The notes: generated from the letters alone by a model not told the origin. A stretch of 64,000 bases of DNA from a virus (IMGVR_UViG_3300030450_001823:33236-97235), one strand, 5' to 3'. Counted from the first letter of the stretch, positions 418-63,539 are shown. Numbers and translations are program-made.

Positions 418-530
418 AAGACAATGTGTGGGTACAGACCGCAGAGGCTATACTAATAATAGCCATTCTACTACCTATTGTAGTGGTACTATACCCTATT
501 TACTGGTTAAAAGAGAAGGTGTTTGGATGA
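414..530 (+). CDS. 38-aa single-pass membrane protein
   Basis: Manual translation MKDNVWVQTAEAILIIAILLPIVVVLYPIYWLKEKVFG*. It is preceded by GGAGG, overlaps the upstream stop, and its stop overlaps the next ATG (ATGA at 527-530). Confidence 0.6.
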   Translation: MKDNVWVQTAEAILIIAILLPIVVVLYPIYWLKEKVFG

Positions 531-39641: not shown

Positions 39642-41036
39642 TTAATTCCATACACTCCCTGCTAGAGCGTGTACCTCATCCCAGTTCATGTTACCGAGTT
39701 CCTCTGTTGAAGGAATCTCTACGGTGGAGTTGTCTGTTGCTTTACGGATTTCTATACCTGCTGGTTTTGTAGCAAGGTCGTCAATTCTAGCACCGAGGTC
39801 AGCAATTGCTTTCTCGATGTTACTTAGTGGTGCACGAGCGTCAAACTCTGATGCTGCGCGAGCCTCTGCTTCGTAGTTAAGTTCCTTTGCAAGGCGGTCT
39901 GAAAATACATTGTTCAAGGAACCCTTGAATTGTTCTTCAAGAGCAGCAGCCTTGTAGACTTCGTATGCAGCCTCGATGTCAGTTGAACTGACATTGCTTG
40001 GGTGCAAGTAACCTTTCGATACACTCTTACCGGAATTAATCTTACCAAGTGCGCCAGTAGATGGGTTGCCACCTTCTTGCTCACGGTTCGCTGTCTGTCC
40101 CGACATTTGTGCCGTATCTATTTGCTCAGGTGTACTACCAAGGTTAGCCTTAGCGACATCGTCAAAGTGACTTCTTGCCGCACCAGTGTCAACGCCTTGT
40201 GATTTCAAGGTGTTTTCCATCCAGTTTAGGTATTCACTTGATATTACATCAGAGTATTCGCTCTTTTCCATATCATCGTATGCCTTTTTCTCTTCGTCTT
40301 TCATATCTTTCGCCTCATCTTTAGGTGCGTCATCTTTCTCATCCTTAGACTCGTCTTTAGCATCATCTTTGGATTCCATAAAAGGAGGAAGGTCGCCCTT
40401 CTCCATTGAATCCATATGTTTGCTCATTCGGTCTAAGACACTAGAAAGTTCTGCTAATGTTTCTGTTTCACTTGTCATATCTGTGTCCTCCTTCAATATA
40501 CGGAATGTCGCCTCCGGGTTAATACCTTTTTCACAAATAGTAACTTCATGCAGTTCCAACTTGGAGATTTCTGTATAGTCTCCGTGTTTATCATCGGCCT
40601 TACGCATTCTCTTAAACGCTTGACCTCCGATGCTGAAACCAGTTAGGTTACCTTTGCGAATATCATTGGCTACTTCACGAGCCTTTTCGATGTCATCTCT
40701 TAGTTGAATGACTACGAACATACCGGCGTCATCGACACCGGATTTCCACACACGACCGTCAGAGTCAGTGTATTGTGGTATTACACTACCAACCTGTATG
40801 TTAGAGTGTGCGAGTTGTACATTTCTAAAATCTTCTGCTTTCATAAAGTTACCAAAAGCGTCTTTTAGTGCTCCACGAGTGATTAGGTCTCCTTGCTTGT
40901 CAACCATTTCAACACTGGCATAACCAGCGATTACAAGGTCGTTACCTGCCTTAATGATACTGATATTCCCCTCGTGATGAACGGGGGAGGTTCTCAGTGA
41001 AAGTGAGGCGACCATGCTTCTATAGAGAATGACCAT
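39642..41036 (-). CDS. HK97-type prohead protease fused to scaffold
   Basis: IAGYASVEMVDKQGDLI, VQLAH (His), GFSIGG (Ser), ELHEVTICEKGINPEA; acidic/helical C-terminal scaffold. The start may be ATG at 41015. Confidence 0.9.
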   Translation of the reverse strand: MVILYRSMVASLSLRTSPVHHEGNISIIKAGNDLVIAGYASVEMVDKQGDLITRGALKDAFGNFMKAEDFRNVQLAHSNIQVGSVIPQYTDSDGRVWKSGVDDAGMFVVIQLRDDIEKAREVANDIRKGNLTGFSIGGQAFKRMRKADDKHGDYTEISKLELHEVTICEKGINPEATFRILKEDTDMTSETETLAELSSVLDRMSKHMDSMEKGDLPPFMESKDDAKDESKDEKDDAPKDEAKDMKDEEKKAYDDMEKSEYSDVISSEYLNWMENTLKSQGVDTGAARSHFDDVAKANLGSTPEQIDTAQMSGQTANREQEGGNPSTGALGKINSGKSVSKGYLHPSNVSSTDIEAAYEVYKAAALEEQFKGSLNNVFSDRLAKELNYEAEARAASEFDARAPLSNIEKAIADLGARIDDLATKPAGIEIRKATDNSTVEIPSTEELGNMNWDEVHALAGSVWN

Positions 41037-41046
41037 ACTATATAAT
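41037..41046 (-). promoter_or_regulatory. Candidate archaeal TATA box for the protease-capsid operon
   Basis: TTATATAG on the - strand about 25 nt upstream of ATG 41015, the spacing expected for a leaderless archaeal transcript. Confidence 0.4.
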
Positions 41047-47319: not shown

Positions 47320-47697
47320 TCAAAGAGTGCGGTTACTTTGCTTTCTCATTATTGAGCCGATGCGATTAGTTCTAATGGTGCCCGGTAAGACATCATTAGA
47401 AGAAGGGTGAATCTTTTCAATGTTATTGTAACGCATGACTGGTACACCGCCAGCATAGACATCGTTGACTCCCGTTGGGTTAGATTCTCCCTTTAGGATT
47501 GCCTTTTCTACATCGTTGGATAAGTATTCTGCATACTTTGTTATTTCATTGATATTAAGACGAGCATTTGAAGCATCATTGTCTTCTAGCGCTTTGTAAA
47601 AAGCATCAATATGAGTACGCATTTTTCTAGCCATTGGGTCAAGTTTCAACAAGTCCATGCGCCAGTCCACTACTCCCCTTGACTTTAACCTTGTCAT
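47320..47697 (-). CDS. Hypothetical helical head-module protein
   Basis: ORF directly after portal; the likely start is MDLLKLDP. Confidence 0.55.
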   Translation of the reverse strand: MTRLKSRGVVDWRMDLLKLDPMARKMRTHIDAFYKALEDNDASNARLNINEITKYAEYLSNDVEKAILKGESNPTGVNDVYAGGVPVMRYNNIEKIHPSSNDVLPGTIRTNRIGSIMRKQSNRTL

Positions 47698-49460
47698 GCG
47701 CCCTTAAAATTACGAGCGTCTAATATATTCCGAGAAGCCTGTTGAACTCCGCCCATTGGCATGCCTCTTTGTTGCACACTGGAAACAGGAGAGCCTGAAC
47801 CCATTGTGCTTCTGTTCTGAGGGCTTGCTGGGCTACTCGGAGTGCGTATTCCCATACCTTCGCCACCCGGTTGACCCATCTGCGCTTGTCTTGCCATCTG
47901 CGCTGCACCTTGTGGACTTATGTTACGGCCCGGCAAAGCGCCGGGAGTGCCCATTCCTCCACCCATTTGCATACCCGGCATCATTCCGCCCGGAGGCATA
48001 CCACCCGGAGGAGGTTGCTGCATCCCGGCTTCGGCAGGGTCAGGTTGCTTGTATATGAAACGAATATCTCGGTTAGCAGAATCTTCTACTAAGTCAGGCT
48101 TGTAACCTAGCATCATCATACGCTGCGCTATATTGACCTCCATCTCATCACGGCGTAGTCTTGTAACTTCGTCTTCTTCTTCATTTGGATACAGGGTTAT
48201 TTTCCAATCCGTAATATCCATCTCTTCATTTAATCGGGGGAATAGATGCTCGGCATATACCTTGTGCCCAAACTCAACCGCACGGTTAGTAACAAGAATC
48301 TGCATACCTTCATTGTTTAGACCGCCGGACTTACCAGTATCCATCATAAATACATTCGATACACCATAGAATGCAGCGATACGCTGTCTCATTTCATCTC
48401 TTGCAGGTATGTATTGCATCTCTTCTAATGTGTCCATAAACTTGACCCAGTTGACACCACCTCTGCCGGAATTAGACTCTATTCCTATCTTAGGGATATA
48501 ATGAGGGTCACGCTCTAACTTTTCATCCATACTCTTGAAAAACGACTTCATTGATTCTAAGTTGTCAGTTGTTACAGAAATCATACCTTTAGGAGTTCTA
48601 CGCTTGCTATAAGAAGTATACATATAATTATCCATAGCAGTCAAAGTCATAGCCTGTCGCCAAAGTGTAGAAACAGGAGAGCGACCGTATAACTTAGAAG
48701 GTTGGTACTTACTTACATGTATTACTTCTCCCTTAAGGTAGTATTGAGTTTTTCCTGAACCAGCAGTATTGACATGATGTACATCTTCTAAGTCGTAACC
48801 GCATGTTTGGCAAGTCTTTTCTTCTTCGCTGTAAGACCTAACTTGGTCTCTATGAACTGGGCATACCCTAAATCTACCACCACGGACTCCTCTTTTGTCA
48901 GCAATTATACGCATAAAGATAGGGTCACCTCTAAGTATCTCTTTGACTCTGTAAAACATTAGTTCGTTAGTATCAGGGTCCATGTAGTATTCTTTGATAA
49001 GTACAAGGAATGCGTCGTCGGTAATGTTCAAGTCATATTCAATTTCTCTAAGAACATCCATAAAGGTCTGCTCCATTGAGTTTCTCTGCTCAAGTAACCA
49101 GCGAGGATATACTAACTGGTTCACATCAGGCTCTGCTAAATTAGAATTATTACATCTTTTGCATATTTCAACATCATGTTGGAACTCAGCATCGCAATCA
49201 AGACATTTCTTTGCAAACTTCTTTTCCCAATAATAACCTCTACGGAATATCTCTTGTTGAAGAGTAGTCAAAACTGTGCGGAGAATAAGATTTTCATTAG
49301 CAACTGCATACAAAGCAGGGATTGTAATACCTTGTACGAGAACTGGCTCTTGAATACCTGTAGTCCAAAGCGGCATTTGTGGCTCAGGAGTTCTTCTTTT
49401 TCTAAATGGATTTGTAATTGATTCTAGTATTCGACCTACTCTGCTTTTTTGCTCTGCCAT
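47694..49460 (-). CDS. Portal protein
   Basis: DLNITDDAFLVL, EVIHV, YGRSPV, TPKGMISV and RIAAFYGVS are HK97-family portal motifs; lies between TerL and the protease. Confidence 0.9.
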   Translation of the reverse strand: MAEQKSRVGRILESITNPFRKRRTPEPQMPLWTTGIQEPVLVQGITIPALYAVANENLILRTVLTTLQQEIFRRGYYWEKKFAKKCLDCDAEFQHDVEICKRCNNSNLAEPDVNQLVYPRWLLEQRNSMEQTFMDVLREIEYDLNITDDAFLVLIKEYYMDPDTNELMFYRVKEILRGDPIFMRIIADKRGVRGGRFRVCPVHRDQVRSYSEEEKTCQTCGYDLEDVHHVNTAGSGKTQYYLKGEVIHVSKYQPSKLYGRSPVSTLWRQAMTLTAMDNYMYTSYSKRRTPKGMISVTTDNLESMKSFFKSMDEKLERDPHYIPKIGIESNSGRGGVNWVKFMDTLEEMQYIPARDEMRQRIAAFYGVSNVFMMDTGKSGGLNNEGMQILVTNRAVEFGHKVYAEHLFPRLNEEMDITDWKITLYPNEEEDEVTRLRRDEMEVNIAQRMMMLGYKPDLVEDSANRDIRFIYKQPDPAEAGMQQPPPGGMPPGGMMPGMQMGGGMGTPGALPGRNISPQGAAQMARQAQMGQPGGEGMGIRTPSSPASPQNRSTMGSGSPVSSVQQRGMPMGGVQQASRNILDARNFKGA

Positions 49461-50807: not shown

Positions 50808-52289
50808 TCAAGCGACGAACCAAGCCCCTGCTACATTATTTTGTTCAGACTCACCAAACAGGCTATCAAATCCGGGCATGTAGTCATCTAGCGCAACTAC
50901 ATTTCCTCGGAACTCTTTGGTAGCCCAATTAGCCAGTGCTAGGCTCATAGCCAAGTCATCATGGGAGCCTACAGATTCAAGTCTGCCGTTTTTCTGCATT
51001 CCAAATCGACTAAGTTGAGTCTCAAGAGTACGAGTATATTCTTTACTTTGTTCATTGCCCCAAGGAGTTTTAATCTTACCTTGCTCAAATGCCATCAATA
51101 ATGACATAAACATACTTTCCTTGCGTTGCTTTGTTGTCATAAAGGTCTTGATAGGTATATCATCCCTCATCTCTTGTAACTCAGCGGCAAACATTCTTTG
51201 AAAGTTATTACCTTCAAGTTCAATTAAGTCAGGTTGAAAACGATTATTCAGTAAAACTATTTGTCGCTTTTGAGCAGCACCGCCTAGTCCTTTTTCATTC
51301 AAAGCATAAATGACTTGTTTATCTTCGCTATCCGGCAATGTTCTAAGTATAGTCATAGCAGTGTAGTCAGCATTAGCATCAGATGCAATTGCAGGGTCCC
51401 ATCCGATAAAGTGCTGACCAAATACACCAGCCGCTTCTCCTTCTTCATCAAACTCTTCTTCTGCTCTGTCTAATAATATCAGTTCGCTATCTCTTGCTTT
51501 TTCAAGAAGTGACATAGGAAACATACTAGACATGTCGTGGATAGGCTCACAAAGATATTCACGAGCGAATCTAATCGCTGGCATAGATTGTTCACGAACT
51601 TTCAGTGCATCTAAAGGCCATCTAGTAGGCCAAAGAGGTTCTCCCAATGCATTTATTGCAGGGTATGTCTCAACTCTAAAGGCATCTTTGTCTTCCAGTT
51701 CTGCATACAAGTCGTTGTAACTAAAAGGAGTACCGACCATCATAAGACGACCTGTGTGGTGCAGAACTGGAAGTAAGACAGTATAGAACCAATCTGCTGC
51801 TCTTTGTAATTCAGAAGCAGTGGTACCCCAAAGAATATCGTCACATACAACTACATCAGGGTGAAACCCACGAGTTGCTCCACCAACGGACTTAGCCATC
51901 ATACGGCTACCGTTAGTGAACTCAAAGTAAGACTTAGCCCAAGGTTTTCCACCACTGGGTTTCAAATGCCTAAGAACATCGCTACTTTCTATGTTATTAC
52001 GGATAAACCGCATGTGTTCAAGGGTCTGTTCTAAACTGTGACTGAATATCATAATGTGGGTTTTAGGATTAAAGGCAGCAATCCAAAGAGCATAACTCAT
52101 AAAAAATACAGACTTGCCGTGGTCACGACTTGCCTTTACACAATATCTGTTACTTTCTACTAATCCTTCTTCCCAGCACTGGTGGTGGTCCGAGTAGTCG
52201 AATTGTAAAATCTCAGTAAAGAAGTATTTGAATGACTTTTTGCACATTTGTATGTCAATGTCGTTGACGAGTTCATCCACATTTCCCAC
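50808..52289 (-). CDS. terL: Terminase large subunit
   Basis: Walker A ASRDHGKS, Walker B VVVCDDI, motif III VGTP, FAREYLC, nuclease IGWDPA and HDDLAMSLALA. Confidence 0.95.
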   Translation of the reverse strand: MGNVDELVNDIDIQMCKKSFKYFFTEILQFDYSDHHQCWEEGLVESNRYCVKASRDHGKSVFFMSYALWIAAFNPKTHIMIFSHSLEQTLEHMRFIRNNIESSDVLRHLKPSGGKPWAKSYFEFTNGSRMMAKSVGGATRGFHPDVVVCDDILWGTTASELQRAADWFYTVLLPVLHHTGRLMMVGTPFSYNDLYAELEDKDAFRVETYPAINALGEPLWPTRWPLDALKVREQSMPAIRFAREYLCEPIHDMSSMFPMSLLEKARDSELILLDRAEEEFDEEGEAAGVFGQHFIGWDPAIASDANADYTAMTILRTLPDSEDKQVIYALNEKGLGGAAQKRQIVLLNNRFQPDLIELEGNNFQRMFAAELQEMRDDIPIKTFMTTKQRKESMFMSLLMAFEQGKIKTPWGNEQSKEYTRTLETQLSRFGMQKNGRLESVGSHDDLAMSLALANWATKEFRGNVVALDDYMPGFDSLFGESEQNNVAGAWFVA

Positions 52290-52295
52290 ATCTCA

Positions 52296-53333
52296 TCACT
52301 CCATATCCTTAACCGTCTGCCATAACTCAGCATATTGCGGAGTATTTTCTCTACCTTGAGCGCGCCACTGGTTTAACTTAGCCATCATAGCCGCTTTTCC
52401 TTTAGCGGGGTCTCCACCAGCAATGACACTTCCTTGGTTAGCATTAAGTCTACTCGTTTGTTGCTCTATCCCTGCTTGCTGTTCTGCACTAGGGTCCGTA
52501 TAAGATTCATCCTTAAGATTAAACCCATCAGGTGTTTCGCTGGCACTTTCTATGTCATTAATTTCATCAGCGGCACCACCTTCTCTGCTACCCATACCCA
52601 CCGGTTGGACTATATTATTAGTAGCAGCAGGTGATGCACTAGCCAAAGTTTGTACCGGTTGCCCAGCAGCATTTTGTCCGACCATAGGAGGAGAAGGATT
52701 GGGGTTAGAAGATTGACTTACCGCAACCATAGGAGGAGAAGGATTGGGGTTAGAAGATTGACTTACCGCAACCATAGGAGGAGAAGGATTGGGTATAGGT
52801 ACAGGAGGTTGCGGTGGCGAAGGTGGAACTTGAGGTGGTTTGTAAGGAGTAACCACTGGATTTGCATTTCTACGATTTACTGCAACCAAGTTTGCGTCTG
52901 CTGCATCTTTAACGGCTGTATTTTTACGACGCATAGCGGCCATTGGATTAAACCTACTCATAGGACCTTGCCCTCTTGAACGGGCCTGTTCTGCAAGTTT
53001 AGCATTCTGTACTGCTACTTTTTGTTTATTATCCTCTCGTATGTTTGCTCTTGCTTGACCTTCTCTAGTTACGGTAGAGCGACCTAGACCTTGCCCAAGT
53101 TGTTTACCTTGAACTCCGCCTGAAATTGCTGACTGGGCCAAGCCTCCCAAACTACGATGCTGACCCGCTAAAGAACCAAGGGCACCGAGGACACCACCTG
53201 CCATACCGCCTAGTTTTTCTCTAAAAGTTTTACCTCTTGCTTTTTCATTTCCACCACCACTGGCTACCATAATTGGAGGCCCGCCACTTGCTGGATACTG
53301 TGCACCTATTCCTTTAACGAGTACTTTACCCAT
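52296..53333 (-). CDS. Low-complexity Gly/Pro/Gln-rich protein (possible internal/ejection protein)
   Basis: Gly-rich hydrophobic helix GGMAGGVLGALGSLAG, Pro-rich middle and an internal tandem repeat. Confidence 0.55.
   Translation of the reverse strand: MGKVLVKGIGAQYPASGGPPIMVASGGGNEKARGKTFREKLGGMAGGVLGALGSLAGQHRSLGGLAQSAISGGVQGKQLGQGLGRSTVTREGQARANIREDNKQKVAVQNAKLAEQARSRGQGPMSRFNPMAAMRRKNTAVKDAADANLVAVNRRNANPVVTPYKPPQVPPSPPQPPVPIPNPSPPMVAVSQSSNPNPSPPMVAVSQSSNPNPSPPMVGQNAAGQPVQTLASASPAATNNIVQPVGMGSREGGAADEINDIESASETPDGFNLKDESYTDPSAEQQAGIEQQTSRLNANQGSVIAGGDPAKGKAAMMAKLNQWRAQGRENTPQYAELWQTVKDME
52681..52793. repeat. 45-bp in-frame tandem repeat, 2.5 copies
   Basis: accataggaggagaaggattggggttagaagattgacttaccgca at 52681 and 52726, with a partial copy at 52771; encodes PNPSPPMVAVSQSSN. 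Confidence 0.95.
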
Positions 53334-55450
53334 CAGAATACACCTCCAAATGCGACTTTAACAGCCTTTACTATCTCAGGTTTAACACTCCATTCGTCAG
53401 CAACTTTGTACCAATCACCTTGGCTTTGATAAAGACCGTGCACATCTACTCCGGTGAGGCCGAGGCTTTTAGCAATGTCTTGTACATCCCAATAAGAATC
53501 AATTGAAAGCGCACGATTAGGTATCATTTTTGTAATATCTTTATCTTGACGAGCATCCATTATCTGAACTAACTCAATCTTTTTGCGTATTTCGTCTAAA
53601 TTAACCAAAATATCATCTGAGCGCTGTACCAAAGCACCGGAGCCAATATCCCAAAGTTGTTGCCTAGGGTCCATCCCTAACCTATTACCGAAGTATTGTT
53701 CTTCAAAAGGAGCGGCAGGTCTTGTAGGATAAGCAGCAGGGGCTGCTGCTGTAGGAGTAGGCATTACTTGTTGAGGCATAGGTGCAGCAGGTGCAGGTGC
53801 AGGTGTAGGTGCAAGAGGACCGACTGCTACTTTTTCTCGTTGAGGAACTGGCATTTCTCTACGAGCATTAGAAGCAGGTGCTAGGTCACTAGTACCTACG
53901 ATTCTTTTTTGCCAGTGCTCAGGTACTTCTGTATGGGTTTCGCCAAAGCCGTGTGGCAAACCACCAGCAATATGCTCAGTAGGAACTGAGCCAAGATTAA
54001 ACTTTTCATGACCTTGTGCCCCCATAATTCTACCAATTAGGTCTTCTGTTTTTTCACGCAGTCCTTCTACCGGAGCGTATCTTGACTTTTGACTTTCGTG
54101 CGCTCTTAAATTAGTAGCCGCTTGCTCAAGTGCCTGTTCTTCACTCATACCTTGTTGCATATACTTACCTGCAAGGTTACTCAAATGACCGACAATATCG
54201 GCTGCTCTGATATTAGCAGTTTTATGATAAGAAGGACCTTCGGTAGAAACAGCGGCTTTAGCATTAGAGCGGTGTAATTTATATTCTTCATCAGTATGAT
54301 GACTACCTAATTCTCTAAAGGTGTTATTAATAGCAGTTTTAACAGCACCTCCGCCACTACCTTCTAGGTTATGAGTTCGACTAAAAAATAACTTCATAGC
54401 CATTGTACCAGCCATTTGGTTTAACTCTTCGGGAGAATAGCCTTCTGTACTAACACCTGCTTGTTGCATAACACTTGCTAGTTGTTCACCAGCAGAAACA
54501 GGGTCCTCTTCACCTCCCTTTGGTCTACCTCCACCACTACCAGTAGCACCGTGATAAAATACATCAGGTAAAAGATGAGCGACTTGATGAGCATGTATGT
54601 CGCCGTGAGTTCTTTGAGAATCTAACTGACTTCTAACTTCGGGATGTAAATAATTATCAGGAGAAGTACCACTTAATCCAGCCTTTGCTGCGTCTGTTTT
54701 GTTCCAAGATACTACCAAATCATTTGTTAAATAGTTAGGCTTGAGTACAGAGTACTTAACATAAGGTAACCTTTTGTACTCATTTGGTGGCACACCTGCT
54801 GCTGCTAATTCTTCTCCAATCTCTTTGTGAAAATGAATGTGCCCACCATCAATCCAAGAACCTTGGTCTGCGCCGGTTTCAGGGTCTACATTTCCCATGT
54901 TCATTGAATATGTAACTAAAGGTCTAGGTCCTCCTTCGTAAAGAGGGGTGTCGCCTCTAATTTGCCTTTCCTCGGCGGGAGTCTTAGGGTCGATGTAATC
55001 ACCGGCAAATGTTTTTCTCCATTCAGGACTTTCAAATGGAGGCAAACCATGATTTGTATCACGAGGGTGTTTCATATTATATCTGTCAATAGCATTGTTA
55101 ATAATTTGAGTAGCAGATTCAGGTCCGTATTTTTCAGACAAGTCCTTGTGCACATAATCAATCGGGTGATGACCAAAGGCAGTACCGTCTTGATTATTTA
55201 TCAACTGCCCAGTTTGAGGATTATGCGACCAAGGAGGGTGGTCGGGTTCATTTGGGTCAGGATTAATTGCATCTTCGGGTGCCCATGAGTGAACAAACCC
55301 TCTGTTATTTTCACCACCTACTCGATAATGTAACAAACCACTCTTGCGAATATCCATTGACTCAAGATAAGCCTTTAGAAAAATACCTGAGCCGTAAGTC
55401 TTGGCTTGCTTTTTGAAATAACTATGGGCAGGTTGGTGAACTCTAAACAT
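53333..55450 (-). CDS. Hypothetical 705-aa protein (possible internal virion protein)
   Basis: Long ORF with a Pro/Ala linker and a small helical C-terminal domain; IRKSG site near the N-terminus. Confidence 0.6.
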   Translation of the reverse strand: MFRVHQPAHSYFKKQAKTYGSGIFLKAYLESMDIRKSGLLHYRVGGENNRGFVHSWAPEDAINPDPNEPDHPPWSHNPQTGQLINNQDGTAFGHHPIDYVHKDLSEKYGPESATQIINNAIDRYNMKHPRDTNHGLPPFESPEWRKTFAGDYIDPKTPAEERQIRGDTPLYEGGPRPLVTYSMNMGNVDPETGADQGSWIDGGHIHFHKEIGEELAAAGVPPNEYKRLPYVKYSVLKPNYLTNDLVVSWNKTDAAKAGLSGTSPDNYLHPEVRSQLDSQRTHGDIHAHQVAHLLPDVFYHGATGSGGGRPKGGEEDPVSAGEQLASVMQQAGVSTEGYSPEELNQMAGTMAMKLFFSRTHNLEGSGGGAVKTAINNTFRELGSHHTDEEYKLHRSNAKAAVSTEGPSYHKTANIRAADIVGHLSNLAGKYMQQGMSEEQALEQAATNLRAHESQKSRYAPVEGLREKTEDLIGRIMGAQGHEKFNLGSVPTEHIAGGLPHGFGETHTEVPEHWQKRIVGTSDLAPASNARREMPVPQREKVAVGPLAPTPAPAPAAPMPQQVMPTPTAAAPAAYPTRPAAPFEEQYFGNRLGMDPRQQLWDIGSGALVQRSDDILVNLDEIRKKIELVQIMDARQDKDITKMIPNRALSIDSYWDVQDIAKSLGLTGVDVHGLYQSQGDWYKVADEWSVKPEIVKAVKVAFGGVF

Positions 55451-57057
55451 CAGCCGACCCTCCCACTACCTCTTGCTGCAAACATAGTAGAAGGTGCGCC
55501 CCAGTTCTTAGGGTCATTTTCCATATCTTCTGTGGCACCTTCGTTTCTAGTAGTACTATCTTGGCCTTCTCGATGCCCTGCCTCTCTATTTTGACCGGGA
55601 CCTGCTGAAACAGCAGCCTTGTTATGTCTATCTCTATTTTCCATAGATTCTTTCATGCGTCTAAGTAACCTACGCATTTGGGCAAAGTGCATGTAATCCA
55701 TTTTTTTAGAAACTTCATCTAGTTGTTTTTTAACTTTAGTCAAGTCATCTGACTTAGCCAAAGACTGACCCATTAATTTAGGAGCAGTTGGTGCTCTAAT
55801 ACTCAACCCTTCTCCAGTACTTATCTTAGGAGGTTTAGGATTATATGTTCTTTCAGAACTTAAGCCGTGACCTGACATCGGTTGAGGTATGTTACCCATT
55901 AATTTACGACGAGCCACAGTACCCATTTGGTGTCTATACTTTTCAGGAAATAACTTGAGAGGTTGCTTTGTAGAAACACCAAGGTGGCTCATATGAACAG
56001 AAAGAGGACTACGCATAAGTCCATGCTTTTTACTGGGTTGTAAATATCTTGAGTGTAACTTAGAGCGACGAGAAGTAGCAGTAGATATGTTAGCACCACC
56101 GGGCTGAATACGGAATAGCGGCTGAGTCCAAGGTTTCAATTCTTTGCCACCAACTTTGTCAAGTCTACTTTTTATCAAACTACTCCAAGCGTCATCAATT
56201 GGCTCGCCTGTAGAAACCGTATTGTCATGAGCCGTACCAGCAAGTGGAGAAGCAGGTGCGCCACAATCAGGGCAAGGTTGGCTTAGAATCTTACCTTGAC
56301 AAGTAGGGCATTGTGGAAGGAGTGGGTTAATAGTCTGTACAGGAGGTCTTTTGTACCTACGCATAGTAGGTGACTCGTCTACTCTGTCTTTCATCAAACT
56401 CGACCAAGCGTTATCAATTGGCTCGCCTGTTGTAAAATAATCAGGGTCACCGTGAGCATCGCGTCTAATCATTCCCCGCCTTTGCTCACTTTCTCGCATT
56501 TCTATTACAGGCTCAGCAGCCAATCTCCTAAGTCTGTTAATTTCTGCTTGAGGGTCAATAGGAGGAGGTCTTCTACTAAACTTCTCGTCAGGAACTTCGT
56601 CATCTTTTTCTTCATTATCGTCTTCTTTCATAAGACTAGACCAAGCATCCTCCATCGGCTCACCTGTAGCAAGCATGCCGCCCGGTGCTGGCATTGTACC
56701 CGTTGCGTTACCAATACTGAGATTACCAGTATCAGGCATACCGGTCATTGCGCTGAGTTGATTACCTTCTTGATATTGGTCAGCCATAGGGTCTTCTTCT
56801 TCTTCCTCTTCCATACCCGGCATCATAGGTGGCATCTCAGGCTCAGGTTTAGGAACTTCAATAGTAAGATGTGGTAAATCAGAAGCCTGTGTTTCTGCAT
56901 CTTTTTCAGCAATGCGCTTATCCTTCGCTGCCTCCATCGCTTCGGGGTCACCTATACCATAAGTGTAATCGTCTTCATCCTTGGTATAACCAAGCATAGA
57001 CTCAGAACGAGGACTATACATCCTTGTATCAGAACCTGTACTCATATTACCCGGCAT
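55450..57057 (-). CDS. 535-aa modular protein with three TGEP.D.AWSSL.K repeats
   Basis: Acidic N-terminus, three tag copies, a CxxC...CxxC cassette and a basic C-terminal half. Confidence 0.65.
   Translation of the reverse strand: MPGNMSTGSDTRMYSPRSESMLGYTKDEDDYTYGIGDPEAMEAAKDKRIAEKDAETQASDLPHLTIEVPKPEPEMPPMMPGMEEEEEEDPMADQYQEGNQLSAMTGMPDTGNLSIGNATGTMPAPGGMLATGEPMEDAWSSLMKEDDNEEKDDEVPDEKFSRRPPPIDPQAEINRLRRLAAEPVIEMRESEQRRGMIRRDAHGDPDYFTTGEPIDNAWSSLMKDRVDESPTMRRYKRPPVQTINPLLPQCPTCQGKILSQPCPDCGAPASPLAGTAHDNTVSTGEPIDDAWSSLIKSRLDKVGGKELKPWTQPLFRIQPGGANISTATSRRSKLHSRYLQPSKKHGLMRSPLSVHMSHLGVSTKQPLKLFPEKYRHQMGTVARRKLMGNIPQPMSGHGLSSERTYNPKPPKISTGEGLSIRAPTAPKLMGQSLAKSDDLTKVKKQLDEVSKKMDYMHFAQMRRLLRRMKESMENRDRHNKAAVSAGPGQNREAGHREGQDSTTRNEGATEDMENDPKNWGAPSTMFAARGSGRVG
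56170..56667 (-). repeat. Three dispersed 42-bp in-frame repeats (56170-56211, 56389-56430, 56626-56667)
   Basis: Encode TGEPIDDAWSSLIK, TGEPIDNAWSSLMK and TGEPMEDAWSSLMK; DNA core ccaagcgt(c/t)atcaattggctcgcctgt is shared by two copies. Confidence 0.9.
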
Positions 57058-57066
57058 TTAATCAAC

Positions 57067-57768
57067 TCATATTATATCTAAAATGTCTTCACTAACTTCA
57101 CCATCAGCCTGTGACAAAAGTTTAGCCTTGACTCTTTTCCAAGTTTCAGGACTTTCCTTACCCAGTTCCACCTTTAAGACATTGATAGTATTATTGGCAA
57201 CATTAGTACTAGGTTCTGCCCATTTCTCTTGGTATTGGCTTAGGTCTTTGAGAGTTTCACGAACTTCTTTGTGCAATCTAACCATGTCAGAGATAACACC
57301 ATCGTCATGTATATTGGTCTCCTCCATAAATTGAGAAAGTTTTCCATTTAATCCTTCTACATTTTTACGAAGTATGTTAACTTCTTCTCCAACTTTGACT
57401 GAAACAATTGCAGTAGCACTTCTTTTGACCAAAGGCTGGAAATGATTTTTCATATGACGATAGACTAACTGTTCGCTGCAATCAAGTTCTGTTGCTATAT
57501 CTTCACTAGTTCTATCTCCTTCAAAGTAAGCAACTTCGTATTGCTTACGGTCATCACTTGTACATACTATACAACTATGGTTTGCACTATTATGATAATC
57601 CCCTGCGTGGTTATTCATATGTCGCTCGGATGTATTAGTTCTCCAACCCATATCTTTGTCTAACATCTTGATGTCAGCAATGCCATTAATTATGTTTTGT
57701 TCTAACTGGTCCCGCTCTTCGTGCTGGCAAAAGGGGCATGACCGCTTAGTTTGACGCTCACCGCCCAT
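57067..57768 (-). CDS. Putative terminase small subunit (tandem Zn/HTH domains plus coiled coil)
   Basis: Two CxxC...HTH...RHxxxH units followed by a helical oligomerisation region; upstream of terL. Confidence 0.5.
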   Translation of the reverse strand: MGGERQTKRSCPFCQHEERDQLEQNIINGIADIKMLDKDMGWRTNTSERHMNNHAGDYHNSANHSCIVCTSDDRKQYEVAYFEGDRTSEDIATELDCSEQLVYRHMKNHFQPLVKRSATAIVSVKVGEEVNILRKNVEGLNGKLSQFMEETNIHDDGVISDMVRLHKEVRETLKDLSQYQEKWAEPSTNVANNTINVLKVELGKESPETWKRVKAKLLSQADGEVSEDILDII

Positions 57769-57828
57769 AACGCTCCGAGAGCATGCACACGAATAACCCT
57801 TTTGAACAAAGACCGATTGCGTAGAGTA

Positions 57829-58167
57829 ATGAGATTACCTCGTTCTCCACCTAAAATAATGGGAGTTCCTGTTTCTATAGAGACTGCAAAAAGCCTAACA
57901 AGAGCCAGTAGAGATGTGTTTATGAGAAGGTTTGTAGGTAATGATATAAAACAAATAAGAATGGATATTTGCATGGTCTGCCCAAGTTGGGAGCACACTA
58001 GTAACCGATGTACTGAATGTGGTTGTCAAATGAGAGTAAAAGTCTCGCTTGCTTCTTCTGAGTGCCCATTAAAAAAATGGGGTAGGCATGTTGAATCGTC
58101 AAACGCTAGAGATTCGGCTATAGATACTACCGAGCATAAAGAAGGCACCAAAGAGTCCAGCGACTAA
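57829..58167 (+). CDS. Cys-rich small protein (DUF6171-like)
   Basis: RMDICMVC...RCTECGC.MRVK.....ECPLKKW pattern. It is the only convincing + strand gene in the late region; the start is likely ATG 57829. Confidence 0.7.
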   Translation: MRLPRSPPKIMGVPVSIETAKSLTRASRDVFMRRFVGNDIKQIRMDICMVCPSWEHTSNRCTECGCQMRVKVSLASSECPLKKWGRHVESSNARDSAIDTTEHKEGTKESSD

Positions 58168-58344
58168 GTAAGACATAGTGTCGCTACCTAATGTCCCTGA
58201 GCCTGTTACCATTACAATGCCCAATGTAACTATAATGGCTATTAGTTGAACCATCACCATATCTACTATTACGCTCTTCTTTGGTGCAAATATACTCATA
58301 GTACTACTTGCAAGTCCAATAATTGGTCCTTCTTTTGGTATCAT
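58099..58344 (-). CDS. Small two-TM membrane protein
   Basis: Two hydrophobic stretches: VIVDMVMVQLIAIIVTLGIVMV and YLVAGLFGAFFMLGSIY. Confidence 0.7.
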   Translation of the reverse strand: MIPKEGPIIGLASSTMSIFAPKKSVIVDMVMVQLIAIIVTLGIVMVTGSGTLGSDTMSYLVAGLFGAFFMLGSIYSRISSV

Positions 58345-58348
58345 AGTA

Positions 58349-59002
58349 TCACCGCATACCCATCATTCTGCCCATAAAGGAGCCAGCAGCACCACCGGCT
58401 TTATCCATAAAGCCTTCATTAGCCAAAGCAGCACTTAGTGCACCGCCCATCATAGACTGTTGTGCAAATGCCATAATTTGTTGTTGTTGCATTTCTGCTT
58501 GTTGAATGTTTTGCTGACTTGTCATTTGCAAATTACTAAATTGACCTGTTACATTTTCCGCACTCATAGTCTGTAAGTTAGAAGGGAGTGATGTAATGTC
58601 AAGTTTCATTGTACCTTCATCTTCATTGATAACAAAGGTAGCACCTTTTAGAATCTCTAAAACTGAAAATGATACTAGGTCATTGAGCATTGAAAGGAAA
58701 GTACCCATTTGTTGACTAATAATAAATCGGTCAGCAGGTGCTAGGCTTTTCATTAATGCCATTTGTATTTCTGCCTCAGAAGGAGGTTGCATAGATTGCT
58801 GGCCCATTTGCTGAGCATTCATACCCATGCCTCCGGCCATACCAGCCATGAAGGGATTTTGACCTGCTTGTTGCATCATTCCATTTTGAGTAGCAAAGGG
58901 ATTGGCAGATTGTTGCATACCCATACTACTAGCACCTAAATTAAGTGCCTGTCCGTTCTGTTGTTGTGCGTTGTTATTTGAAAATAGTCCCATTTTATTC
59001 AC
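58349..59002 (-). CDS. Gln/Met/Gly-rich protein
   Basis: Low-complexity ends around a short folded core; part of the GTPase operon. Confidence 0.65.
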   Translation of the reverse strand: MNKMGLFSNNNAQQQNGQALNLGASSMGMQQSANPFATQNGMMQQAGQNPFMAGMAGGMGMNAQQMGQQSMQPPSEAEIQMALMKSLAPADRFIISQQMGTFLSMLNDLVSFSVLEILKGATFVINEDEGTMKLDITSLPSNLQTMSAENVTGQFSNLQMTSQQNIQQAEMQQQQIMAFAQQSMMGGALSAALANEGFMDKAGGAAGSFMGRMMGMR

Positions 59003-59004
59003 CT

Positions 59005-60048
59005 TTATTGTTGCGGTAATGTCATCTGCTCTGCTTGTCCCACTACGCCGCTATTGATAACAGCATTGGGCTGAGCATTAGCCAAACCTACGCCCGTCGT
59101 TGCTTCTACAGCACCGTTATTATTCTGCATTTGCATTATGCCTAAATTACTAATCGCATCACTAAGAGTCGAACCTTGTTCTGCAATTTCCTTTTGAAAT
59201 AATCTAAGGTCAAATACAATCATAGTCACATCATTTATACCTGTTTCAGGATTTTTATAATGTAGTATGTTGATACCGTTCTGAACTTTACTGTCTTTTT
59301 CTAATTGCTCAAAGAATGGCTCATACTTTTTGAGCAACTCAGGGGTATTATCCTTCTTCTTAATAATAGCAATAGGTACAGCGATTGTACTAACGCCCTT
59401 CTTTACCATCTCTTTCATACCAGTCTTAGTCTTATTGTGGTCTTTGTCAGATTCATTCTGCCATTTGCAAAGTAAATGATAAAGATGTAAATGTTCAGGG
59501 CAATATGTACCCTTCATTAGTCTACCATTAGTTACTTGTTCTCTTGCAACAAAGGCTTCGGGAGCACCTGTTACCGGGTTTTTCCAATATAATTCCCAAA
59601 GACTTTTACCAGTCTCTTCATCACAAATCTTAGTATAAAGATTATCATATTTAATCAACTCTTCACAGTCACAACCGTCAATTACACAATGACTGGTTTG
59701 GCGATTATAACGATACTTGTTACCCCAAAGCCACCTAAAGGGGTTAAGTAGACTGCGCTTAGTTGGTGTAAGAAGCCTACTGGCTTGTTTAATGTCTTGC
59801 TTTCTTGCCTTTCTAGGGTCAGCGTGACGACTGGGGTAAAAGTTAACCTTGGGCACTTCTATATTTTGCTTACTAGCAGCCGCTGCCATCCCTTGTTGTG
59901 CACTTTGCATTTCTAATAACTGAGCGTGACTAGCACTACCTTGCTGACCTAACGCCATCAAATGTGCATCACTCATATTTGCCAAATTAGCATCGTTTCT
60001 AGGTACTCTACCTGAGCCGCCGAATCCAAAGTTCATTACCATATTCAT
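59005..60048 (-). CDS. Cys/His-containing hypothetical protein
   Basis: HCVIDGCDC...YCPEHLHLYH possible metal site with low-complexity termini; directly downstream of the GTPase. Confidence 0.65.
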   Translation of the reverse strand: MNMVMNFGFGGSGRVPRNDANLANMSDAHLMALGQQGSASHAQLLEMQSAQQGMAAAASKQNIEVPKVNFYPSRHADPRKARKQDIKQASRLLTPTKRSLLNPFRWLWGNKYRYNRQTSHCVIDGCDCEELIKYDNLYTKICDEETGKSLWELYWKNPVTGAPEAFVAREQVTNGRLMKGTYCPEHLHLYHLLCKWQNESDKDHNKTKTGMKEMVKKGVSTIAVPIAIIKKKDNTPELLKKYEPFFEQLEKDSKVQNGINILHYKNPETGINDVTMIVFDLRLFQKEIAEQGSTLSDAISNLGIMQMQNNNGAVEATTGVGLANAQPNAVINSGVVGQAEQMTLPQQ

Positions 60049-60055
60049 TTCCTCC

Positions 60056-60778
60056 TTACATTGTTAGTATATCAATTAATGTGTTTTCTACATTCCAACC
60101 AATTCTTGTAGCCATCATGCCTCTACGCGTAGGTATACCCGCTTTTTGCAAACGCACTAAGTCTTCTCTAAAAGGGTCAAACATCTTATGTTCACCAAGG
60201 CGCTGTTGCTGCCAAAGTACATTTGCATTATCATCCCACCAATTATCTGCTTTGTTAGCAACGAGCATGATTACTTTAGGACAGTACTTTTTACCTCTAA
60301 GCCAAGACCTAAACTTACGATAACGATACTGACGATGAAGAATTGCATCTACAAGATATTTGAAACCGCCTACTGACTGGATTGCATCACTGCCTCCTTT
60401 AGTTGCTCTATCGTCAAACATAAACAACACCGCTTCTACATTACGATTAACCATATCATCTATCCAAAGATTCCAAAAACGCTCATCGCCACCAATGTCA
60501 GAAGAATAAACCACGCGCTTGTCTCCTTTCCAACTTACACGCTTGCGTGTAGGGCGAGGGAGCAAAAAACGATTCATTCCGGGGATTCTAAAGTGCTTAG
60601 TGCGCTCACTTTCAGGTATTTCCTCCATTTCACCCGGAGTTGTCATGTACCTGTCAAGTGTAGTTTTACCAGTCATAGGTGGGCCATAGATACCTACTCT
60701 GCGAGGAATAAAGTAATGATAAAGTTCACGAGCAAATACCATTCCACCCACAAGTGCAGACCCTCCCATTGCTGACAT
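60056..60778 (-). CDS. Small Ras-superfamily GTPase, Arf/Sar-like
   Basis: G1 GPPMTGKTT, G2 candidate ERT, G3 DIGGDERFWNLW, AVLFMFD strand, G4 VANKAD; hydrophobic/amphipathic N-terminus. Confidence 0.85.
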   Translation of the reverse strand: MSAMGGSALVGGMVFARELYHYFIPRRVGIYGPPMTGKTTLDRYMTTPGEMEEIPESERTKHFRIPGMNRFLLPRPTRKRVSWKGDKRVVYSSDIGGDERFWNLWIDDMVNRNVEAVLFMFDDRATKGGSDAIQSVGGFKYLVDAILHRQYRYRKFRSWLRGKKYCPKVIMLVANKADNWWDDNANVLWQQQRLGEHKMFDPFREDLVRLQKAGIPTRRGMMATRIGWNVENTLIDILTM

Positions 60779-60786
60779 AATATCAC

Positions 60787-61035
60787 CTAATCAAAAATTG
60801 CATCGGACCAGCCTTGTAAAGTCTCTTTTAACCAATTACCAGTATCCTCCCAAAGATTCCAATCAGTATAATACTCATAAGCACTTACCACAAAGGCAGT
60901 TAATATAGAAAATGCAATCACCTTTAACCAACCCATTCCTCTTTCATAGGCTACATCAACCATGTTAGCGGTATGCATCATTCTCAAAGTCTCTTCTACT
61001 GTATCGTCAGAAGGGGTTTTGAAAATACGGCCCAA
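60787..61035 (-). CDS. Small membrane protein
   Basis: TM segment WLKVIAFSILTAFVVSAY followed by a Trp-rich amphipathic tail. Confidence 0.65.
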   Translation of the reverse strand: MGRIFKTPSDDTVEETLRMMHTANMVDVAYERGMGWLKVIAFSILTAFVVSAYEYYTDWNLWEDTGNWLKETLQGWSDAIFD

Positions 61036-61041
61036 AAAGAA

Positions 61042-61632
61042 TCACCCCTTCTTTTGATAACGCTTATCAGGCGTACCGTCTTTTTTAAGACGGGCAGTCT
61101 CTTTATCACCAAAGTCTAAACCTAGGCTAAGTGGCTCTTTAGAATCTGTTATAGAAGTGTTAGGTACAAAGTTAGAACTATCAAAGTCATTGTTGTACAA
61201 TCTTTCCTCTACCCAAGGCGGAGTCTTACCGGGGTTTTCCTCCATCCACTTTAACTCAGTCTCAAGTTGTGCTTCTTGCATACGCATTTCCATATCTTGG
61301 CGGCGACGGTCAAAAGTAAACTCCATGCTTCTATATCGGTTTCTGCGCTCTCGCTCTTGAGCAGCCATTCTTGCTTTATCATCCATACCCTGTTGGAAAA
61401 ACATCTTGAAAAGGTAGTAAGCAAGTCCCTGTACAGCAAATGCTGCCATAGAATAAGTTACTCCATTTACCACTGGGTCTTCTAAATCTATCCATAGATT
61501 AGCATCGAATAGTCCAATTGCCATTCCGATAGATACCGCTTGTGTTAAGATTAATCCCATCAAGCGTATTTCTGCTTGGTCATGCTCTCTGTATTGTTGG
61601 TCTTGTGCTGGCACCATAATAGTCCCTCTCAC
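61042..61632 (-). CDS. Two-TM membrane protein with coiled coil
   Basis: Two hydrophobic helices, then a charged coiled coil (AAQERERRNR...MEMRMQEAQLETELKW) and C-terminal RLKKDGTPDKRY. Confidence 0.7.
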   Translation of the reverse strand: MRGTIMVPAQDQQYREHDQAEIRLMGLILTQAVSIGMAIGLFDANLWIDLEDPVVNGVTYSMAAFAVQGLAYYLFKMFFQQGMDDKARMAAQERERRNRYRSMEFTFDRRRQDMEMRMQEAQLETELKWMEENPGKTPPWVEERLYNNDFDSSNFVPNTSITDSKEPLSLGLDFGDKETARLKKDGTPDKRYQKKG

Positions 61633-61697: not shown

Positions 61698-61734
61698 GGG
61701 TCGGAGAATGCGAGAGGGTTGCCCCCTCCGACCC
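61698..61734. terminator. GC-rich stem-loop in intergenic region (possible terminator or RNA structure)
   Basis: gggtcggag (61698-61706) is the perfect reverse complement of ctccgaccc (61726-61734); lies between the 442-aa gene and the GTPase operon. Confidence 0.45.
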
Positions 61735-61766: not shown

Positions 61767-63095
61767 TCACTCTTCTTTTTCGTCTTTTTCAGAGTCAAGT
61801 TTCATACGCTTACCATCCTTTGATGGTCCGGGTCCGGCTTTGCTACTAATTACAATAACCATACCATGAGCGGGCTTCTTACTATCTTCCTTTTTGTTCT
61901 TGTATTCTTTACAATTACAGTTCTTTTTACCACATGCAGGGCAAACTGCCTTGTACATTATATCTTCTGCTTGTTTTAACATTCTTTCTCCTATTTTCAT
62001 ATTCTCACCTTTTGTTGCCTTTTCACCCATGCCAAATCCTCCGCCAAATTGCATAGTGTTCTCTTTACCAGTCCAAATGTCTTGAAGACCAGTTCTGTTA
62101 CTGAATTGATTATCCACGCCACCAATGTCAGTACCTTCGCCAAAGCCACTAGCAGCACCGCCTGTATTACTTTGACCAAAACCACCGCTACTAGCACCAC
62201 CATAAGCACCAAAGCCGGAGGTATTTGGGTCAACTGAATAGTCATCTGCCATATTTTGTGCAAAGTAAGGTGCTAACAAACCTGCTACAGGTCCAGCCAA
62301 TTGCGTTGCTCTACCAGCAGCACCCATCACACGACCCATAGGCTGCGTAGGTCTGAAACTAGTAGGACTATTACCGTATGTGGTCAAACGATTACCTAAC
62401 TTACTTTCAAGAGGTGCTGTATAACGAGCGGCTTTATCAGAAACTTGTTGAACTTTTGCTTGGTGCTGCATAGCGGGAGTAACAGCGGGTTTAGTCATAA
62501 CCGTATTCCTTTGTAACCAAGTCGGGCCTCGCGTTCCTCTACCAATTCCATATTGAGCAGGTCTTCCACTAAACTGACTAACAGGACCAACATCGGCTGC
62601 TGCTTCTGCTCTTGCAGCCGCTATCCTACCCCGATTAATACCGTCTGTTCTTGCAGCGAGTCTACCACCTGCTGTTCTTGCAAGTGGTTTTGAAACTCCC
62701 GCAGCCCCTAGTCCTCTTGCTGCTGCACCTGCTCCTCTTACATAGGTAAAAGGATTAATCGCTTGGGTAGCACCAGTCGCCGCTCCACCGAGTAAATCAT
62801 ACCACTCAGGGTCTTCAACTTCATGCCTACCAAGATAGCCTCCTGTAATAGGGTCTTCATACCGAGCCTTTTCTCCAATACCACCAAAAAACTTCTTATC
62901 AGGGTCTCCCCAAGCGTCAAAGCCATGCATACCTGCGCCTCGTGCAGCACCGTATGCTCCAAACGCTAAAGGAATAAGGGGTAAAAACTTCTCAACCTTG
63001 TCAGGGTCATTTGTCTGTTTTAAGACAGCCCAAGCAGCGTCACTCGGTGACAAATCTGACTTCGACATGTACATTCCCACTGCCTCTGTTTTCAT
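61767..63095 (-). CDS. Gly/Ala-rich protein with N-terminal AWxxLK tag (possible ejection protein)
   Basis: SPSDAAWAVLKQ, then hydrophobic Gly/Ala helices; C-terminal CPACGKKNCNC. Confidence 0.65.
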   Translation of the reverse strand: MKTEAVGMYMSKSDLSPSDAAWAVLKQTNDPDKVEKFLPLIPLAFGAYGAARGAGMHGFDAWGDPDKKFFGGIGEKARYEDPITGGYLGRHEVEDPEWYDLLGGAATGATQAINPFTYVRGAGAAARGLGAAGVSKPLARTAGGRLAARTDGINRGRIAAARAEAAADVGPVSQFSGRPAQYGIGRGTRGPTWLQRNTVMTKPAVTPAMQHQAKVQQVSDKAARYTAPLESKLGNRLTTYGNSPTSFRPTQPMGRVMGAAGRATQLAGPVAGLLAPYFAQNMADDYSVDPNTSGFGAYGGASSGGFGQSNTGGAASGFGEGTDIGGVDNQFSNRTGLQDIWTGKENTMQFGGGFGMGEKATKGENMKIGERMLKQAEDIMYKAVCPACGKKNCNCKEYKNKKEDSKKPAHGMVIVISSKAGPGPSKDGKRMKLDSEKDEKEE

Positions 63096-63272: not shown

Positions 63273-63539
63273 TTACTTAAGCGTGCCTCGCTCTTTGAAA
63301 TGACGAGCACGGTTTGCATGAGGGTCTTCTGCGACCATAGTGCCTTCTTTGGTATGACTCATATCAGGACCACCTTGCCCATAAATACCACGCTTACGAC
63401 GCTCTTGGTTCAAAGACTCACGATATTTGACTCTTTCAGGATTAGATTCATATTTTTTATCATACTCTACTTTATGACGCAGTGCTTCGGGAGAAGAAGC
63501 ATGCTTTAACATACGCCAAGCGATGTCGAAGGCAGTCAT
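63273..63539 (-). CDS. Small HNH-like protein with N-terminal AWxxLK tag
   Basis: MTAFDIAWRMLKH..., then Y.KKY...R.K.R..LN..RR...G.D.SH......ED...NRAR, a minimal HNH-like pattern. Confidence 0.55.
   Translation of the reverse strand: MTAFDIAWRMLKHASSPEALRHKVEYDKKYESNPERVKYRESLNQERRKRGIYGQGGPDMSHTKEGTMVAEDPHANRARHFKERGTLK

Follow-up and report, generated by a model that had tools for sequence, protein, structure and literature searches.

What does a small GTPase of the Arf type do in a tailed virus of archaea, where it lies in a compact operon among the structural genes? The question is raised by a 64,000-nt stretch of DNA (hereafter the window) that comprises bases 33236-97235 of the 97,235-bp linear IMG/VR virus record IMGVR_UViG_3300030450_001823, which is estimated to be 93% complete. 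Six co-directional genes, here termed g1 to g6, occupy positions 58099-61632 on the minus strand of the window, and the third of them encodes the GTPase. A sequence-only reading of the window had taken these genes for a membrane operon that serves GTP-driven lysis, vesiculation or a virus factory. We find that g3 is a Ras-superfamily small GTPase whose closest affinity appears to be with Arf/Arl proteins, and that the operon is kept as a unit, with a recognizable core in five virus clades. The cassette is probably a membrane-acting GTPase switch of some kind. More tentatively, and partly by analogy, we favor the view that it is a virus-specific, GTP-switched module that acts late in infection at the cytoplasmic membrane of the host, most likely in virion release.

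The GTPase gene g3 (60056-60778; 240 aa) is preceded by g1 (61042-61632; 196 aa as a mechanical open reading frame (ORF) with a GTG start at 61632) and g2 (60787-61035; 82 aa). It is followed by g4 (59005-60048; 347 aa), g5 (58349-59002; 217 aa as a mechanical ORF with a GTG start at 59002) and g6 (58099-58344; 81 aa), the final gene of the unit. All are on the minus strand, and the operon is as tightly packed as had been described (2-8 nt), with gaps of 6, 8, 7, 2 and 4 nt between successive genes. A GGTGA or GGAGG ribosome site lies 4-8 nt ahead of every start codon. For g1 and g5 these sites better support ATG starts at 61617 (61042-61617) and 58993 (58349-58993), respectively, and the Atlas record of g5 begins at the same Met.

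The features by which g3 had been recognized as a GTPase, namely intact G1, G3 and G4 motifs and a hydrophobic N-terminal helix, are all present as described. G1 reads GPPMTGKT, G3 DIGG(D), G4 NKAD and G5 MATR, and in an alignment of 28 homologues G1 (GxxxxGKT), G3 (DxGG), G4 (NKAD) and the G5-like MAT[RK] are invariant. Across 156 family sequences, G1 is kept in every one and G4 reads NK[AYHF]D in all, and the G5 column reads MAT[RK] in clade 1, the clade of the close relatives, and the canonical ISA[KRQL] in distant members. With G1, G3 and G4 in order, a G5 motif and the corresponding fold, g3 is a genuine Ras-superfamily small GTPase. Homologues of g3 form 474 clusters at 90% identity and those of g4 form 1059 clusters, the latter all unnamed marine sequences, and a chance pattern is therefore excluded. 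The GTPase nonetheless belongs to a small family of its own: among 1.84 billion representatives, a profile search found only 87 proteins at E ≤1e-3, none of them an ordinary Ras or Arf protein. Searches of viral contigs with P0129 and of metagenome contigs with the family member P0199 gave no matches. Longer fused forms of the GTPase were not found, which is weak evidence, as lengths of 420-491 aa were not covered.

In the structure model the N-terminal helix of g3 spans residues 2-23. Hydropathy shows a hydrophobic stretch of low moment at residues 3-15 and an amphipathic one at residues 11-25. The hydrophobic helix is kept family-wide, including in full-length distant members (22-50% identity), and P0199 has a full-length transmembrane (TM) segment in this position. 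Switch II of g3 is DIGGDERFWNLW, in which Trp is kept at +7, Arg stands at +2 instead of +4, and the residue directly after DxGG is Asp (D98) in place of Gln. The earlier remark that the catalytic Gln is replaced by Asp is correct for this protein, but the replacement is not special to this virus. The residue at this position is Q, E, D, S, H or T across the 156 locus family sequences, N also occurs among the 120 best database matches, and many of the full-length distant members read DxGGQ or DxGGH. Since this position varies freely and G1 and G4 never do, it is not constrained like a sole catalytic residue, and a partner or a different residue may be needed for GTP hydrolysis. A separate feature of switch I is the sequence Arg59-Thr60-x-His62 (window 60590-60610, minus strand), which shows no variation in the close family and is largely retained in distant clades. 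Arg59 or His62 could be a built-in catalytic Arg or His, which we regard as a lead and nothing more.

To which part of the superfamily does g3 belong? The AlphaFold model of g3 (predicted local distance difference test score (pLDDT) 65; predicted template modeling score 0.68) gave at least 500 Foldseek matches at E ≤1e-3, with G proteins in all of the top rows, and VIA Z scores of up to 15.5 across 160-185 residues. The structural ranking based on this model places a Lokiarchaeal Rag-like protein, Arl8, Arl2, Arl1, GerdArfR1, Gtr/Rag, Arl3, Arf1 and Arl6 at Z 15.5-14.0. Within this range Arf/Arl proteins (Z 15.4-14.0) are tied with Rag/Gtr, whereas Rab, Ras, Rheb, Rac and Rho reach Z values of 13.3 or less; across all of the Arf/Arl and Rag structures that rank above these, Z runs from 15.5 down to 13.4. 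Other close fold matches are the signal recognition particle (SRP) receptor beta (SRβ; Z 14.5), Sar1 (Z 13.3) and Gα. In profile searches of the PDB, the best match to the broad family profile (A2) is GerdArfR1, an Asgard Arf-family protein (PDB 8OUN, E 1.1e-7), followed by Arl8A/B, Rab33B, Arl1, KRas, Arl5 and Arf1; the GerdArfR1 structures (PDB 8OUN/8OUM) represent Asgard ArfR (bioRxiv 10.1101/2024.02.28.582541). The broader profile was needed to reach these solved Arf relatives, because the single g3 sequence retrieved only P-loop fragments from the PDB, and the profile of close g3 homologues only Rab33B (E 0.3).

Family models give a graded picture. Five distant family members have sub-threshold Pfam Arf scores, and only the two most remote members, P0203 and P0204, pass this model (36 bits versus 22.3, over the full model length). 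P0203 alone also passes SRPRB (PF09439; 26.2 bits versus 25), which g3 does not match. Automatic JGI names follow the same lines, a few members being called “GTPase SAR1 family protein” and one distant member SRP receptor beta. By sequence profile and modeled fold, g3 is placed in the Arf/Arl/Sar-Rag-SRβ-Gα part of the superfamily, nearest to Arf/Arl but too divergent for Pfam’s Arf family. Its classification as Arf-like, rather than as a TRAFAC protein unrelated to membrane dynamics, is borne out by the GerdArfR1 match and by Arf/Arl Z values above those of Rab, Ras and Rho.

With the Arf family (Arf1, Arl1, Arl2, Arl8, Sar1 and GerdArfR1) g3 shares a Ras-type G domain with G1-G5, the hydrophobic N-terminal helix, and the switch II pattern DxGG-x-xx-[FY]W-x-x-W, in which Trp lies seven residues past the Gln position. 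It differs in its identity to solved Arf proteins (12-17%), in approximately 20 extra residues between switch I and strand 2, in an insertion after helix 3, and in the change from Gln to Asp. It also differs in being encoded by a virus and in having the same orphan partners always alongside. Rag/Gtr proteins carry a C-terminal roadblock dimerization domain after the G domain; in the model of g3 the chain stops at residue 240, at the end of the final G-domain helix, and no such domain or other extra domain follows. SRβ is close to g3 by fold, and differs in that g3 has no SRPRB match.

A synteny comparison bears on whether the six genes belong together. Retrieval with the GTPase gave 80 IMG/VR loci (65-99% identity). 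All 80 contain g3-g6 and 79 contain g1 and g2, and the sole locus without g1 and g2 is cut off by the contig end. Order and strand are constant in these clade-1 loci, and the cassette is followed by a small-terminase-like gene with zinc and helix-turn-helix features, two variable genes, and the gene for the large terminase (TerL). Median identities in the clade-1 loci are 75% for the GTPase, 77% for TerL, 63% for g4 and 53-59% for the other partners. Records retrieved with TerL and covering the site carry the GTPase in 7 of 7 cases, and in 3 of 3 records that are at least 90% complete; in all seven TerL-retrieved records that lack it, TerL lies <3 kb from the contig end on the cassette side.

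Beyond clade 1, a five-gene core (two membrane proteins, the GTPase, g4 and g5) is found in four further clades with GTPase identities of 31-40%. Clade 4 (L166, L167; 38-40% identity) has all six genes as well as the terminase-like gene. Clade 5 (L172, L177, L181; 36%) has g1, g2, the GTPase, g4, g5 and g6, with an inserted 260-aa protein between the 1-TM protein and the GTPase whose C-terminal half is extremely acidic and rich in Asp and Glu (L181:7217-7999, plus strand). In clade 3 (L161-L164, L168; approximately 39%), g1, g2, the GTPase, g4 and g5 directly follow a thermosome gene. Clade 2 (L081-L160; 31%; 375 loci) has the five-part architecture between capsid and tail genes. The sixth gene, g6, is found in clades 1, 4 and 5 only. 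The expectation that the operon would be conserved as a unit is borne out by these comparisons, with 79 of 80 close loci collinear and the core present in five virus clades.

The homology of the partner proteins is of different strength from gene to gene. Profile-profile comparison with hhalign, for which mismatched control pairs gave 0.09-0.7, indicates that g4 is homologous in all clades (3.6e-69, 7.5e-8 and 8.7e-8). For g5 the values are 9.7e-10 between clades 2 and 3, 4e-5 between clades 1 and 2, and 9e-4 for the third pair, with hidden Markov model (HMM) matches in clades 4 and 5. The g1 proteins of clades 1 and 3 match at 4.8e-10, and HMM searches with g1 reach E values of 1e-12 to 4e-16 in clades 3, 4 and 5; the clade-2 g1 is an architectural and positional counterpart only. 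The g2 signal is weak in clades 3-5 (1e-3 to 1e-4), and every clade encodes a 1-TM protein of 69-79 aa at the position of g2.

The cassette is always co-directional with the structural genes, and its place among them varies by clade. In clades 1 and 4 it precedes the small-terminase-like gene, in clade 2 it separates capsid from tail genes, and in clade 3 it follows the thermosome gene; the head and tail genes hold a fixed order while the cassette shifts. Downstream of the clade-3 cassette, proteins at L164:11741-12856 and L161:13611-14354 (plus strand) have a C-terminal TM segment that is followed by a basic run, and they end in a common DPLxxF-like sequence. These look like tail-anchored membrane proteins, and several small signal-anchored proteins adjoin them.

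The partner proteins themselves have essentially the character that had been assigned to them. Hydropathy and composition confirm g2 as a 1-TM protein, g4 as a Cys/His protein, g5 as rich in Gln, Met and Gly, and g6 as a 2-TM protein; three of the six products (g1, g2 and g6) are small membrane proteins by hydropathy. For g1, the description as a 2-TM coiled-coil protein holds in part: there is one strong TM segment (residues 22-44) and a long charged helix, and the second hydrophobic segment is weaker, although both segments exceed the threshold in the clade-5 homologue. The helix that follows these segments in g1 is rich in Arg and Glu and leads into a basic tail. The single-pass g2 is acidic and Trp-rich at both ends.

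The product of g4, whose gene invariably follows that of the GTPase, contains 6 Cys and 9 His, of which C121, C183 and H186 are conserved across clades (alignment A3). C121 with a nearby Cys, together with C183-x2-H186, looks like a pair of zinc knuckles with a variable insert between them. The g4 model has a pLDDT of 74 overall and of approximately 90 for residues 61-220. Its fold has no Foldseek match at E ≤1e-3, and the best VIA Z (5.5, to a connexin) is at background. Residues 18-63 of g4 resemble the Ffh M domain at Z 4.7 across 46 residues, which was rejected as background.

The g5 protein (14% Gln, 13% Met, 11% Gly) has three parts: a low-complexity N-terminal arm of Gln, Gly, Met and Asn with NPF-like repeats, a central domain of approximately 110 aa with the conserved motif [ST]-x-[ST]-x-EN-[IV], and a Gln-rich helix with a Gly/Ala/Met-rich tail. 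A weak match of g5 to ANAPC4 (E 0.04) was dismissed. Neither g4 nor g5 gave a match in PDB profile searches or a usable match in the ESM Atlas, and for g1-g6 and their neighbors there was no usable match in Pfam, PHROG or NCBIfam.

Two features flank the cassette. The stem-loop reported upstream of the operon was confirmed by sequence and fold as a GC-rich hairpin with an 11-pair stem (GGGTCGGAGGG...CTCCGACCC; 61698-61734, minus strand), which lies between an upstream 442-aa gene and g1. Comparable hairpins occur 60-120 nt 5' of g1 in approximately half of the clade-1 loci. The whole spacer that contains the hairpin has a z-score of just -1.07, and the hairpin is probably a transcript boundary or terminator-like element preceding the cassette. 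Scans for sigma-70 promoters and intrinsic terminators, which are ill-suited to archaea, gave results at shuffle level. At the other end, the 330-nt stretch after g6 is filled by an opposite-strand Cys-rich ORF of zinc-ribbon type (CxxC...CxxC...C; 57751-58167, plus strand) whose 3' end overlaps the end of g6. Its protein sequence is conserved, with tblastn matches in 73 related loci (48-82% aa identity). Because this convergent ORF lies between g6 and the terminase side, g1-g6 form a unit separate from the terminase block.

The genes that flank the cassette share a short peptide, D/x-A-W-x-x-L-[KM]K. It is found near the N-terminus of three genes upstream of the cassette (63018-63047, 63504-63539 and approximately 63900) and three times within a 535-aa gene downstream (56170-56667), and in none of g1-g6. 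Between the cassette and the terminase there is also a 705-aa protein (window 53333-55450, minus strand) with 33 His and no family match, which is poorly conserved (median 32% identity among close relatives).

The window had been attributed to a tailed archaeal virus, and the genome setting supports this. A tailed-virus morphogenetic block lies on the minus strand and includes TerL (50808-52289), the portal (47694-49460), a prohead protease (39642-41036), an HK97/SU10-type capsid protein (38448-39626) and a tail-tube-like protein (31632-33704). On the plus strand are a thermosome subunit, that is, an archaeal-type chaperonin (window 3339-4835; Cpn60_TCP1, E 9e-131), and an ERCC4-type nuclease (window 332-1252). 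Thermosome genes are a hallmark of group A magroviruses (PMC5434244). The homologues all come from marine metagenomes, on contigs of up to approximately 100-150 kb, and a related cassette is on a 106-kb contig (L167) within a Poseidoniales single-cell genome. Because of the thermosome gene, the marine homologues and the single-cell contig, all of which are indirect points, we take the record for a magrovirus-like virus whose hosts are marine group II archaea. Against GenBank phages, tblastn with the GTPase gave no matches, and TerL matched distant phages only (<30% identity). Two giant ORFs are also present on the minus strand, one of 5723 aa (window 8778-25949) and one of 1816 aa between the portal and protease genes (window 41046-46496). 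The latter has a weak match to an ATP-dependent DNA ligase domain (E 1.4e-4) that is under the Pfam cut-off.

Could the virus have borrowed the function from its host? When 121 Poseidoniales genomes were searched with the viral GTPase profile, there was a single hit (1/121), which is the viral contig in the single-cell genome. Pfam Arf (E ≤1e-3) was found in 0/41 sampled Poseidoniales genomes, and ArvB/OapB likewise in 0/41; these are incomplete genomes, and absence here means not found among those searched. As the sampled hosts lack the viral GTPase, Arf and ArvB/OapB, the virus would supply the function itself. In BFVD, the sole viral structural relatives of g3 are Rab, Ras and Ran proteins of giant viruses. 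These are also virus-encoded Ras-superfamily GTPases (Z 13.3 to the mimivirus Rab, PDB 5XC5), but they are recent captures of eukaryotic Rab/Ras genes in Nucleocytoviricota, whereas g3 comes from a tailed archaeal virus, resembles Arf and not Rab, and is without a cellular counterpart among the hosts sampled.

Two known systems help to frame what the cassette might do. The first is ArvABC (OapABC), in which a small GTPase (ArvA) acts with ArvB and a Zn-ribbon protein (ArvC) to drive the formation of vesicles in Euryarchaeota such as Haloferax volcanii (PMC10927574). Like the viral cassette, it is an operon with a small GTPase that has a hydrophobic or amphipathic N-terminal helix, a zinc-type protein and a third small protein. 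The role of ArvABC in archaeal membrane deformation has been demonstrated. The gene order differs between the two, and the viral cassette has additional membrane proteins. OapB (PF09846) is absent from the whole virus record, with Haloferax and Methanosarcina positive as controls, and Pfam matches neither g4 nor g5 at E ≤0.1, unlike ArvC, which is a DUF2072 Zn ribbon. The viral GTPase, zinc-type protein and third protein are best described as a trio analogous to ArvABC, and homology is not demonstrable.

The other system is the phage lysis cassette of holin, endolysin and spanin. In lambda, the lysis genes S-R-Rz precede the terminase genes, and in P2 the lysis genes lie between head and tail genes. 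The viral cassette resembles such units in being compact and late, in having many small proteins with one or two TM segments, in occupying the same two places in the structural region, and in shifting as a unit between related genomes. It differs in that it has no muralytic enzyme or lysis-family match, and that its soluble proteins are far more conserved than usual lysis proteins; we also know of no lysis cassette that includes a GTPase. The earlier remark that no holin or endolysin is recognizable holds: none of the six genes matches Pfam, PHROG or NCBIfam, and no Amidase_2, Amidase_3 or Phage_lysozyme match occurs anywhere in the 97-kb record.

A late, membrane-directed role for the cassette is favored because the hydrophobic helix of the GTPase is conserved, each version has two to three small membrane proteins, the cassette is co-oriented with the structural genes, and its placement shifts. 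For archaeal tailed viruses, the main players of the egress machinery are completely uncharacterized (PMC10791045). In our working model, g1 and g2 (and g6, where present) would mark a site on the membrane, and the GTP form of the Arf-like GTPase would bind that site via its hydrophobic N-terminal helix. The zinc-type g4 would be an effector or GTPase-activating partner of g3, and the Gln/Met-rich g5 would assemble on the resulting platform via its low-complexity arms, so that the proteins jointly deform or destabilize the membrane. The original suggestion of lysis, vesiculation or a virus factory is a hypothesis drawn from position, membrane-protein content and analogy.

Several observations weigh against this role in release. 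The positional argument would hold for any other accessory late gene as well. Lysis genes do not usually match TerL in conservation, as the GTPase does, and no envelope-degrading enzyme is attached to the cassette. The g2 and g6 proteins are holin-like in size but appear to lack the strongly charged C-terminal tail that is typical of holins (g2 has acidic ends, and g6 ends in YSRISSV). As for the GTPase, residues 3-15 of its helix are uniformly hydrophobic more than amphipathic, its model is of middling confidence (pLDDT 65), and g3 has no Pfam match at E ≤0.1 and does not reach the gathering threshold of Pfam Arf (PF00025). Somewhat less probable is a stronger version of the proposal, in which the cassette would be the release machinery that is still missing for tailed archaeal viruses. 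The Arf-like GTPase, its zinc-type partner, the small membrane proteins and a coat-like protein of low complexity would then deform and rupture the host membrane, with a GTP switch as the timer.

Alternatively, the cassette might be a membrane-anchored assembly platform that nucleates or regulates the assembly of heads or the packaging of DNA at the cytoplasmic membrane, with the GTPase as a checkpoint switch. T4 proheads, for example, start on the inner membrane with a membrane-bound helper. A gene that is conserved like TerL, and universal where the site is covered, behaves like a core morphogenetic gene. The cassette is also always within the structural/late block, directly before the small-terminase-like gene, TerL and the portal in clades 1 and 4, and directly after the chaperonin in clade 3. 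We nevertheless consider this explanation unlikely: the place of the cassette differs among clades against the fixed order of head and tail genes, the convergent opposite-strand gene splits it from the terminase block, none of g1-g6 matches a morphogenetic family in Pfam or PHROGs, and the AWxxLK peptide of the flanking virion-type genes is missing from all six.

The closeness of g3 by fold to SRβ (Z 14.5) and Sar1 (Z 13.3), and the distant member that JGI names SRP receptor beta and that passes Pfam SRPRB, could point to membrane-protein targeting, in which an SRβ/Sar-like GTPase and a Met-rich partner insert small or tail-anchored proteins; a membrane compartment or vesicles unrelated to release would be a variant. 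The Met-rich Gly/Ala/Met tails of g5 would fit such a role, as would the series of small or tail-anchored membrane proteins encoded immediately downstream of the clade-3 and clade-5 cassettes. The cassette has no SRX/longin or Sec-type partner, however, g4 and g5 match nothing in Pfam, and the likeness of g4 residues 18-63 to the Ffh M domain (Z 4.7) is at background; for the compartment variant, the late placement speaks against a replication compartment. Both forms seem to us quite improbable. Least probable of all is a soluble regulatory switch that acts away from membranes, in late transcription, translation or nuclease control, with neighbors that are merely co-expressed. The variable residue after DxGG recalls some signaling GTPases that are partner-dependent, and Rag-type regulators are equally close by fold (Z 15.5), but the hydrophobic N-terminal helix is retained family-wide, two membrane proteins precede the GTPase in every clade, and the G domain of g3 is followed by neither a roadblock nor any other domain.

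In surface ocean waters, magroviruses rank with the most abundant of all viruses (PMC5434244, PMC11706807). No description of a magrovirus GTPase was found in the searchable literature, and the three main magrovirus papers do not mention a GTPase. The Arf-like GTPase described here is a core gene of a prokaryotic virus lineage, whereas earlier viral Ras-superfamily GTPases had been seen only as Rab, Ras and Ran captures in giant viruses. If the cassette is membrane-acting, it would offer a compact, expressible system of five or six genes for GTPase-driven remodeling on archaeal lipids, and would mean that the history of non-eukaryotic Arf-type GTPases includes a viral branch. If its role is in release, it would be a release system without counterpart among known phage lysis systems, and would bear on how tailed archaeal viruses leave their hosts (PMC10791045).

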